From an uncultured Prevotella sp. (GTDB lineage: Bacteria; Bacteroidota; Bacteroidia; Bacteroidales; Bacteroidaceae), in NCBI GenBank assembly GCA_900552675.1, contig USAI01000001.1:1-55601 (forward strand): 55,601 bases of DNA, given 5' to 3'. Each line of letters starts with the position of its first letter. Position 1 is the stretch's first letter. Made by a program: the position numbers and the translations under genes. The notes under the pieces were generated by a model. That model made no database searches. It was not told where the DNA came from and saw only the letters and a program-made list of their open reading frames with translations. This document shows positions 12,578-46,286 of this stretch, piece by piece.

Positions 12578-12585
12578 CAAATTTA
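12578..12585 (-). promoter_or_regulatory. Bacteroidota -7 promoter box (TAAATTTG) for the bamA operon
   Basis: Matches TAnnTTTG about 25 nt upstream of the start codon. Confidence 0.65.
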
Positions 12586-12712
12586 GTCAGAATTCCGCAA
12601 ATAGCGGTCGTTTTGTCATTTTATTATGCAAATTAAAGCAGAAAAGTATTATTTTTAAGTTTGTTTAGTGTTTAATGTATTGAACCTAATGGCTATATAC
12701 GCCTATGGGCAT

Positions 12713-12748
12713 AAAAAAAGGACGACACGATCACTCGCGCCGGCCTTC
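12713..12748 (-). terminator. Intrinsic terminator of the small transcript
   Basis: AAGG-C-CGGCGCGA-GTGA-TCGTGTCG-T-CCTT followed by a U-tract on the minus strand. Confidence 0.75.
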
Positions 12749-12760
12749 CAAAGAATAATG

Positions 12761-12856
12761 TTAACGCACGTTGGTATTTACAAGAGCGAAAACGCTCAGG
12801 AGGGTTACGATTGCAACACCTACCAACACTGCGGATGTTTCAAAGTCTAATAACAT
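12761..12856 (-). CDS. Putative 31-aa single-TM small protein MLLDFETSAVLVGVAIVTLLSVFALVNTNVR
   Basis: Hand-translated ATG..TAA ORF with A at -3, flanked by its own promoter box and terminator; about 19-residue hydrophobic stretch. Confidence 0.6.
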   Translation of the reverse strand: MLLDFETSAVLVGVAIVTLLSVFALVNTNVR

Positions 12857-12924
12857 AATCTTTACCTTAAATCTATCAAACTACTAACCTAATGAAAAAA
12901 CGTTGTATTCTCACGAACACATTG

Positions 12925-12932
12925 CAAAGTTA
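12925..12932 (-). promoter_or_regulatory. -7 promoter box TAACTTTG for the small RNA/sORF unit
   Basis: Perfect TAnnTTTG in an AT-rich context, followed by a 5' hairpin GTGTTC-GTGA-GAATAC. Confidence 0.7.
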
Positions 12933-13177
12933 ATGTATCGATATTAAAAATAATGTGTGAAATTAATAGTTTTTTGTGTGAAAAAGTTATTAATTGATTT
13001 ATATCAGTTTCAATGGATATCACATTTTGCTTTGCGCACATGCGTGGTAATTGTGCAAGAAAGGGGCTGAGGCAAAAAGTGTGAGGAGGGGTGTGGAAAA
13101 AGGGGCGTGGCGGTGTATAGCGGTGTATAAGATGTGTATGTATAACGATGCGTGGAGGTGTATGGCGGCGTATAACG

Positions 13178-13218
13178 CAAAAGAGGCAGCCACTCTTTCG
13201 AGCTGCTGCCTCTTTTTA
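13178..13218. terminator. Bidirectional-type terminator downstream of tRNA-Gln
   Basis: AAAAGAGGCAGC...GCTGCCTCTTTT inverted repeat. Confidence 0.75.
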
Positions 13219-46007: not shown

Positions 46008-46286
46008 CCGTCGCCGAAGGCGGCGAATGTTCATAACCGCTGGCGAAGCAGCCAGAGGCTGTAAGCCTGCGGAAATAAGGGTATAAGAAAAGCGTCCTCG
46101 AAGAGGGCGAACATATTTAGTATTAGCTACTCATATTATGTTATTAGCTACTCATATTATGTTATTAGCTACTTATATTATGTTTGCCCTCTTCGAGGAC
46201 GCTTTTCCTTGCTTTCTATTAGCCGTAGGTTCTCTCACTTCGTTCGGTCACCCACGGTTATGCACCTTCGCCACCTTCGGCGACGG
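46008..46286. repeat. 279-bp palindromic element (family E; MITE/REPIN-like)
   Basis: Outer arms match at 29/32 (46008-46039 / 46255-46286), inner arms at 28/29 (46087-46115 / 46179-46207); central 3 x 21-bp tandem. Confidence 0.85.

Follow-up and report, generated by a model that had tools for sequence, protein, structure and literature searches.

We examined a stretch of 55,601 nucleotides (nt) from an uncultured Prevotella sp. (GenBank assembly GCA_900552675.1, contig USAI01000001.1, positions 1 to 55,601 of the forward strand), hereafter the window, and focused on a unit of about 205 nt on its minus strand that lies upstream of the envelope genes uppS and bamA. The unit is real, conserved and outside the libraries of RNA and protein families, and we regard it as a candidate for a previously undescribed small RNA (sRNA) gene of Prevotella. 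With moderate confidence, we read it as a dual-function sRNA, in which an invariant single-stranded leader would act at the RNA level and an optional open reading frame (ORF) would encode a predicted membrane microprotein. An earlier note on this DNA, made from the letters alone, had left the choice between a small membrane-protein gene and a dual-function sRNA. The latter fits best, given the selection on the peptide and the RNA that lacks an intact ORF in 37 of 79 carrier genomes, whereas a protein gene alone is insufficient. Since the peptide appears to be selected and the RNA is kept even where the ORF is gone, neither a mere protein gene nor a mere sRNA covers the data.

In the proposed mechanism, a GNRA-capped 5' hairpin (P1) would open the RNA and serve as its stabiliser, and the exposed leader of about 50 nt would be the working part, which would pair through an extended seed with the initiation regions of other messenger RNAs (mRNAs), in the manner of GibS and FopS of Bacteroides. 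The next part, a variable middle domain that a helix (P2) encloses, is in about half of the carrier species a 31-codon ORF placed directly after the leader, and an intrinsic terminator (P3) would end the RNA. In the species with an intact ORF, the same transcript would double as the mRNA of the membrane peptide. By analogy with the Bacteroides sRNAs, base pairing with other mRNAs is the most likely activity of the leader; no target rose above background in the organism's own genome, and we therefore infer this step.

Prevotella and its relatives are abundant in the gut, the rumen and the mouth, and their RNA biology is almost unexplored; for this group, our search turned up a single transcriptome map, that of Segatella copri. 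The unit is an sRNA candidate that about half of the species in a large genus carry as a single, strongly conserved copy beside essential envelope genes, and it would be an early dual-function sRNA candidate in Bacteroidota with comparative backing. For annotation, it offers a candidate new RNA family as well as a candidate new small-protein family. Its natural forms, 42 species with the peptide and 37 without it, amount to separation-of-function alleles, so that the roles of the RNA and of the peptide can be tested by comparing or swapping them.

Conservation and structure of the unit

A BLAST search with the unit gave a match in 14 of 36 genomes of the same genus, and only short matches at chance level in 24 genomes from other families of the order. 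A 22-nt pattern of the leader and the ORF start was present in at least 120 stretches of public contigs taken at one genome per species, and nearly all labels among the matches listed were Prevotella, Prevotellaceae, Xylanibacter or Leyella; the named species among these carriers include Xylanibacter rarus, X. muris, X. caecicola, Prevotella koreensis, P. pectinovora and Leyella stercorea. When 401 genomes of the family were searched for this pattern with at most one mismatch, it was detected in the unit's own genus only (10 of the 24 sampled genomes and the window's genome) and in 0 of 376 genomes from 34 sister genera. We also built a covariance model of the 5' module, designated R1, and searched 150 sampled genomes of the genus together with the window's own. 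R1 detected exactly one copy per carrier, in 78 of the 150 sampled genomes and in the window's own (79/151), and no paralog of the unit was found in the latter. As judged from these searches, the unit is a stand-alone single-copy sRNA gene that is confined to Prevotella as the genome taxonomy delimits this genus.

The layout described in the earlier note, with a promoter -7 box, a 5' hairpin, a leader, an ORF for 31 residues with A at -3 and a terminator, is present in full on the minus strand (coordinates in Table 1), and it is no accident of this sequence: it recurs once per genome in the 79 carriers, and both hairpins covary. Such a layout exceeds chance by far. The motif TAnnTTTGC stands in the equivalent position in 89 of 94 homologous units, and from the position of this promoter the RNA would start at about G12920. 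The 209-nt RNA folds with -59.5 kcal/mol, compared with a mean of -45.8 for shuffled sequences (z -3.7), and none of 200 dinucleotide shuffles reached this value.

Base pairs were counted on an alignment of 62 distinct ORF-intact units (A2). In P1, 95-100% of the cells were paired, and one of its pairs was found as UA in 32, AU in 22, GC in 6 and GU in 2 units; its loop is always GNGA, in the forms GUGA, GCGA, GGGA and GAGA. The terminator helix P3, the loop of which is also of the GNGA type, was paired in 99.5% of the cells, with changes on both sides in 10 of 12 pairs, one of them occurring as GC in 28, UA in 19 and CG in 13 units. P2, a long-range helix around the body of the ORF, was paired in 84% of the cells, and both sides had changed in 10 of 11 pairs. 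Two inner hairpins were paired in only 72-74% of the cells, and we set them aside as support. For the whole structure, all five measures exceeded those of all 500 shuffles, and sliding the 3' partners by 1-3 columns reduced pairing from 88% to 37-53%.

The leader is the most strongly selected feature of the unit and outlives the ORF, which points to an activity at the RNA level; it is free of C and therefore predicted to be unpaired. Two modules, A and B, make up its conserved part. Module A lay outside every search pattern, yet among 82 distinct 5' modules it was either invariant or conserved to 90% or more, and it is also kept in the ORF-less forms recovered by the covariance model. Module B and the first codons were invariant in the 15 units found by BLAST, and UUUAAGGUAAA is retained where the start codon has been lost (loci L204, L211, L212 and L213). 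Codons 2 and 3 are always UUA-UUA, and UUA makes up only 7.5% of the leucine codons in the window's genome. The distance between the modules varies, and hairpin insertions are tolerated only there. Loci L013, L063, L079, L105 and L087/L214 carry such insertions at one identical spot of the leader, as GC-rich hairpins between 13 and about 70 nt long.

The open reading frame and ORF-less forms

Exactly 31 codons were present in 69 of the 95 units of our first two samples, which had some genomes in common. For 65 distinct ORFs, each of exactly 31 codons, the entropy over codons 8-26 was highest at codon position 3 (1.57), lower at position 1 (1.11) and lowest at position 2 (0.63), and the second position was T or C in 1124 of 1235 cases. 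The check proposed in the earlier note, a comparison of nonsynonymous and synonymous changes between homologs, gave a ratio (pN/pS) of 0.47 for these ORFs, which together with the codon periodicity is a coding signal. The codon statistics indicate that the ORF is under protein-level selection in the species that retain it.

The peptide has the consensus MLLDF[EQ]TT-(hydrophobic 9-26, with T18, L20, S21 and L25)-[HNK]T[ND][IV]R. Its hydrophobic core carries no charged residues (mean hydropathy 2.65 for residues 8-26), and AlphaFold2, run on a 10-sequence alignment, modelled a single helix of residues 2-29 with a mean predicted local distance difference test score (pLDDT) of 89.5. Thus modelled, the peptide is a predicted single-pass membrane microprotein with the acidic N-terminus MLLDF[EQ]TT and the basic C-terminus TN[IV]R, and the charges of the two ends suggest, under the positive-inside rule, an orientation with the N-terminus out and the C-terminus in. 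A profile search of the peptide against Pfam-A returned 0 families, and NCBIfam returned only CcoM at 11 bits, compared with a cut-off of 40. The ESM Atlas contains the identical peptide sequence, unnamed. By language-model features, the nearest clusters were those of the YldA-like (PF23689) and MgtS-like (PF22865) families, small single-pass membrane proteins of enterobacteria that resemble the peptide in length and in having one hydrophobic helix; the similarities of 0.81-0.87, all below 0.9, are at the level of a lead, and no sequence match to Pfam or NCBIfam accompanies them.

The least biased sample for the state of the ORF comprises the 79 genomes of the genus with an R1 match. An intact ORF of 31-32 codons was present in 42 of them. 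In the other 37, the frame was cut to 2-25 codons (32 genomes), lacked an AUG after module B (4 genomes) or was replaced by an unrelated frame (1 genome). Loci that keep the RNA motifs and break the ORF, which according to the earlier note would refute its reading in favour of an sRNA only, are found in 37 of the 79 carriers. The ORF-less forms retain P1, the leader and P3, and also a closed middle domain where one exists. Their lesions range from single nonsense codons in a still recognisable ORF (L050, L103, L110) through frameshifted or unalignable ORF bodies (L004, L007) and bodies swapped for unrelated hairpins (L058, L073, L104, L114, L209, L212) to deletion down to P1, leader and terminator (L011, L055, L106). 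In L004, where the ORF is broken, P2 has been retained with a compensatory change of U-A to C-G (AUGCUGG/CCAGCAU).

We placed the state of the ORF on a FastTree phylogeny of the downstream protein (at most the first 400 residues; 72 loci, 57 of them ORF-intact and 15 not). The state changes at least 10 times on this tree, and the 10 shown of 200 label shuffles gave 13-15 changes; such a count is unable to separate gain of the ORF from its loss. The direction is favoured to be loss, to which both the nonsense-type lesions and a P1 type common to the ORF-less forms and the ORF-intact subgroup MMLLDLES..NNHVE point. With its RNA parts kept throughout the carrier species and the peptide in only about half of them, the RNA probably has a role apart from coding.

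Related small RNAs and alternative explanations

FopS (Rfam RF04319) is a family of paralogous sRNAs, to which GibS of Bacteroides thetaiotaomicron is related; its RNAs of about 71 nt have their seed at the extreme 5' end, directly followed by the terminator, and occur in 12-15 copies. In B. thetaiotaomicron, the single-stranded 5' seed of FopS represses translation of susC and RbpB counteracts this effect, and RbpB binds single-stranded regions of FopS and of BTnc231; the authors state that small ORFs were excluded (PMC11697453). The unit has in common with FopS and GibS the TAnnTTTG promoter, the GNRA-capped terminator and a long, C-poor, conserved single-stranded stretch, and by eye the FopS copies of the window's genome and the leader present the same word order, GUUUUUCAU..GGU..UAGAUUUAAGGU..AGAUU. 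It differs from FopS in its length (205 versus 71 nt), in the 16-nt 5' hairpin that precedes the seed-like leader, in the P2 domain, or the ORF in 42 of 79 carriers, and in its copy number (one per genome in 79 of 79 carriers versus 12-15). The FopS model, the gathering score of which is 56 bits, gave no match to the unit at E <= 10 and, at E <= 5, none to 14 homologous loci, some of them short forms without the ORF. We rejected membership in FopS, with which neither the model score nor the layout of the 5' end nor the copy number agrees. All 5 complete carrier genomes also contain canonical FopS, with 1-4 copies each and always at places other than that of the unit, and upstream of DUF6242 orthologs in 8 other families the one sRNA-like unit was a true FopS, in one genome (60.5 bits, cut-off 56). 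By analogy, the unit may work like a seed sRNA of the FopS/GibS kind and may descend from one, without being a FopS member. The FopS copies of the window's genome lie on contigs C103 (5941-6010) and C43 (13978-14047) and scored 71.7 and 69.5 bits (L188, L189).

The remark in the earlier note that the leader and hairpins recall Bacteroidales sRNA families holds for the motifs of the leader, which resemble FopS seeds, but no Rfam family accepts the unit. When Rfam families were run on the unit and its homologs, none passed its threshold, and CC2171, sroB and BTnc231 gave weak matches at chance level. BTnc231 (RF04180), a validated intergenic sRNA of Bacteroides that is bound by RbpB, resembles the unit in its U-rich start ACGUUUUUUUCAUAG.. 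and in its GUGA-capped hairpins; membership of the unit was rejected at 14.4 bits (E 1.2, cut-off 80.4). Apart from the unit, the window's genome contains at least 5 copies of an sRNA-like unit of about 190 nt (C87:777-799, C87:2910-2932, C32:15-37, C85:6-18 and C25:27004-27016; L031-L033). They consist of a -7 box, an 85-nt C-free stretch rich in G, U and A, and GUGA-type hairpins followed by a terminator, and the palindrome TTGTTTGCGCAAACAG precedes each copy. They have UUAGGUUAGUAG..AUAGAUUUAGG in common with the leader, and their best Rfam match is BTnc231 with 25-27 bits (cut-off 80), which is above the score of the unit.

The dual-function sRNAs SgrS/SgrT, SR1/SR1P, Spot 42/SpfP and AzuCR combine a conserved non-coding segment with a small ORF for a peptide of fewer than 50 residues. 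The unit would follow the same transcript plan, with two parts that are physically separable; it differs in that its peptide is a predicted membrane helix and in that the ORF appears to have been lost repeatedly while the RNA stays. A validated dual-function sRNA of Bacteroidota did not turn up in our literature search, and a 2026 review names none in its accessible part. A transcriptome preprint on Segatella copri lists six intergenic sRNAs with small ORFs as possible dual-function RNAs, candidates only, and reports that the sRNAs are hardly conserved beyond the species complex. A description of the unit itself did not turn up in the full-text literature, which was searched by wording and not by sequence, supplements aside.

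A weak hint of expression came from a gut metatranscriptome contig of 128 nt (depth 180), which covers 12812-12888, that is, the leader and the ORF start, with 4 differences. In three of four public RNA runs, coverage was confined to the tRNA or the neighbouring gene, and no reads of the window's organism covered the unit.

Several results weigh against the dual-function reading. The contig belongs to a relative, and DNA carry-over is possible. Target scans of the window's genome, which is 75% complete, remained without a signal: RNAduplex on 1545 crude initiation regions stayed at noise level (best -32.4 kcal/mol, long weak A/U duplexes), real and short ORFs had the same run-length distribution when 86,285 ATGs were scanned with CAU:AUG as the anchor, and the antisense matches of blastn-short all stayed below 13 nt. 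The best target candidate, a susC-susD spacer with about 18 complementary bases, was rejected for want of conservation; similar sites in other genomes are inverted repeats resembling repetitive extragenic palindromes (REP-like). The likeness of the leader to FopS is without statistical support: the whole-genome FopS scan missed the unit yet found the two true copies (71.7 and 69.5 bits), and a hidden Markov model of the leader did not retrieve these copies at E < 100. A gene for an RRM-1 protein, the type of the FopS partner RbpB, turned up in a single one of 5 complete carrier genomes and was not found in the window's 75%-complete genome. Furthermore, all homologs were located via the leader, so that copies with a decayed leader would escape, and the truncations in L050, L103 and L110 may be recent changes or assembly errors.

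REP-like inverted repeats of the types TAGTTAATAGTTTATAG and CTATAAACTATCAACTATTAAT occur in several copies in L264-L268 (genomes G521, G537, G516, G529 and G501), and most of the genomes in which we saw them gave no hit for the unit. Neither an Hsp20 gene whose initiation region looks similar nor a repeat in the window (46135-46168) is related to the unit. On the plus strand at 46100-46230, the window carries a long inverted repeat, rich in GC, whose loop contains three tandem 21-nt copies (TTAGCTACTCATATTATGTTA-like).

If the unit were a plain mRNA for a small membrane protein, its leader would control translation of the ORF and the ORF-less copies would be decaying pseudogenes. This would agree with the strong coding signature and the exact 31 codons of 65 distinct sequences, with a leader that stops at the start codon with A at -3, with first codons as rich in A and U as expected of an unstructured initiation region, and with the single nonsense changes in L050, L103 and L110. 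We nevertheless consider it unlikely, since the 37 of 79 carriers without the ORF retain P1, the leader and P3 with compensatory pairs, old losses (L004, L058, L073, L104 and L212) combine an unalignable or replaced body with a letter-perfect leader, and the four forms without an AUG retain modules A and B. The converse proposal, that the RNA is non-coding only and its 31-codon frame is untranslated and conserved as the RNA structure of P2 and the inner hairpins, would explain why the body of the ORF is mostly base-paired, why P2 overlaps the conserved codons 8-12 and 27-31, and how half of the carriers manage without the ORF. However, the three-base periodicity, the T or C at nearly all second positions and the pN/pS of 0.47 are signals at the protein level, the fixed 31 codons and the uncharged hydrophobic core favour the same view, and the inner hairpins are just 72-74% paired; the proposal seems to us very improbable. 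The type I toxin option of the earlier note, in which the hydrophobic peptide would be a membrane toxin restrained by an antisense RNA, has in its favour a short hydrophobic peptide on a structured small transcript. It was abandoned as extremely unlikely: none of 62 units has a TAnnTTTG box on its opposite strand, the unit is single-copy and syntenic in a fixed chromosomal neighbourhood, and the RNA is kept after loss of the ORF, unlike a toxin mRNA.

The unit could also be a cis-acting leader or attenuator of the DUF6242-DUF6089-uppS-bamA genes, where a ribosome finishing the ORF on the foot of the terminator would permit read-through. In 64 of 94 loci, the unit is followed on its own strand by a DUF6242 homolog, despite a protein identity between species of only 23-44%, and across units 0-3 nt or 12-14 nt separate the stop codon from the P3 stem downstream, a distance within reach of a terminating ribosome. 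Nevertheless, a conserved promoter (-33 TTTG, -7 TAAATTTG) stands between the terminator and the DUF6242 gene in most spacers, the strong terminator comes with a complete U-tract, and both the invariant leader and the ORF-less forms would be left unexplained. RNAalifold predicted no conserved antiterminator pairing, although no dedicated search was made, and pairing of the leader with the conserved spacer block CTAAACTAACTTAAAA was no better in 52 loci than in shuffles (mean z +0.47). We hold attenuation to be as unlikely as the plain mRNA. A slim chance remains with a protein-binding RNA, in which the C-free leader with its repeated (U/A)AGGU(U/A) motifs would be a platform or sponge and not a base-pairing seed. 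The leader contains two AGGU-type motifs, the multicopy sRNA-like family of the same genome, with the common UUAGGUUAGUAG..AUAGAUUUAGG, contains at least five, FopS and BTnc231 are bound by RbpB in single-stranded regions, and the target scans revealed no base-pairing target. Yet of 5 complete carrier genomes only 1 was found to encode an RRM-1 protein, other candidate binders did not come to light, and a binding motif alone needs no ~50 invariant nucleotides. None of these alternatives accounts for both the coding signature and the retention of the RNA without the ORF, as the dual-function sRNA would.

A wider scenario that we regard as possible, though doubtful, is that an sRNA of the FopS/GibS type at the head of the uppS-bamA cluster gained a protective 5' hairpin and a 31-codon ORF, and that lineages then shed the ORF at least 10 times and kept the seed. 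The RNA would repress mRNAs of outer-membrane proteins or of the SusC type and the peptide would act at the inner membrane, both in the same process, envelope and outer-membrane protein homeostasis.

Feature coordinates and genomic neighbourhood

Table 1 Features of the unit and of the downstream promoter in the window (MFE, minimum free energy)
Feature	Position	Strand	Remark
-7 promoter box TAACTTTG	12932-12925	minus	Bacteroidota TAnnTTTG type, read in the sequence
P1, 5' hairpin GTGTTC-GTGA-GAATAC, 6 bp, GUGA cap	12920-12905	minus	predicted extreme 5' end of the RNA
Leader	12904-12857	minus	sequence reading
C-free stretch, 48 nt	12893-12846	minus	spans the leader into the ORF start
Leader module A UUCAUUAGGUUAGUAG	12881..12896	minus	predicted single-stranded, nearly invariant
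Leader module B UUUAAGGUAAAGAUU and first four codons AUG UUA UUA GA	12846..12871	minus	
ORF, 31 codons and stop, peptide MLLDFETSAVLVGVAIVTLLSVFALVNTNVR	12856-12761	minus	ATG, A at -3
P2 5' arm, codons 8-12	12821..12833	minus	MFE fold and alignment pair counts
P2 3' arm, codons 27-31	12765..12776	minus	MFE fold and alignment pair counts
P3 terminator hairpin, loop A-GNGA(N)-U	12720..12749	minus	terminator stem 12742-12723, GTGA loop in the window
Terminator U-tract, T7	12713..12719	minus	T-run of at least 4-5 in homologs
Promoter of the DUF6242 gene, -33 TTTG, -7 TAAATTTG	12578..12601	minus	in the spacer, outside the unit

Upstream of the unit, a tRNA-Gln gene, which has a terminator of its own, and the gene for a Na/Pi cotransporter are found. 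On the strand of the unit and downstream of it, genes for a DUF6242 lipoprotein, which heads the cluster, a DUF6089 outer-membrane protein, UppS and BamA follow in this order, which bears out the placement of the unit just upstream of the bamA operon in the earlier note. In 3 of the 94 loci, the DUF6242 homolog is found upstream on the opposite strand, and among the other loci, several are flanked by little sequence. Most loci have the promoter block TATTTGCGGAATTnTGAnTAAATTTGCA in their spacer; with this conserved promoter before the DUF6242 gene, the downstream genes would therefore be independent of read-through.

The spacer (12590-12712 in the window and its equivalents in L004-L117) contains further conserved blocks beyond the promoter, CTAAAC(T/A)AAC(T/C)TTAAAA together with AATAATTTGCATAAT or TTTAATTATAAGGTGAAAATG. 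On the other side of the unit, some units, for instance L003, L041, L050 and L072, have a TTGTGTGnnCGCACACAA-type palindrome that overlaps the -33 region and looks operator-like; a strict pattern finds it in 15 of 89 units, and inspection by eye in more. The window has two direct TTTCACACA repeats instead (12945-12990). Between the tRNA-Gln gene and the unit, the minus strand of the window at 13060-13180 is free of ORFs, poor in G and made up in part of repeated TATACACC(G/T)C-like words. Finally, a record labelled Oscillibacter sp., a Firmicutes name, carries a Prevotella-type unit with a 28-codon variant of the ORF (L056), probably through a binning error.

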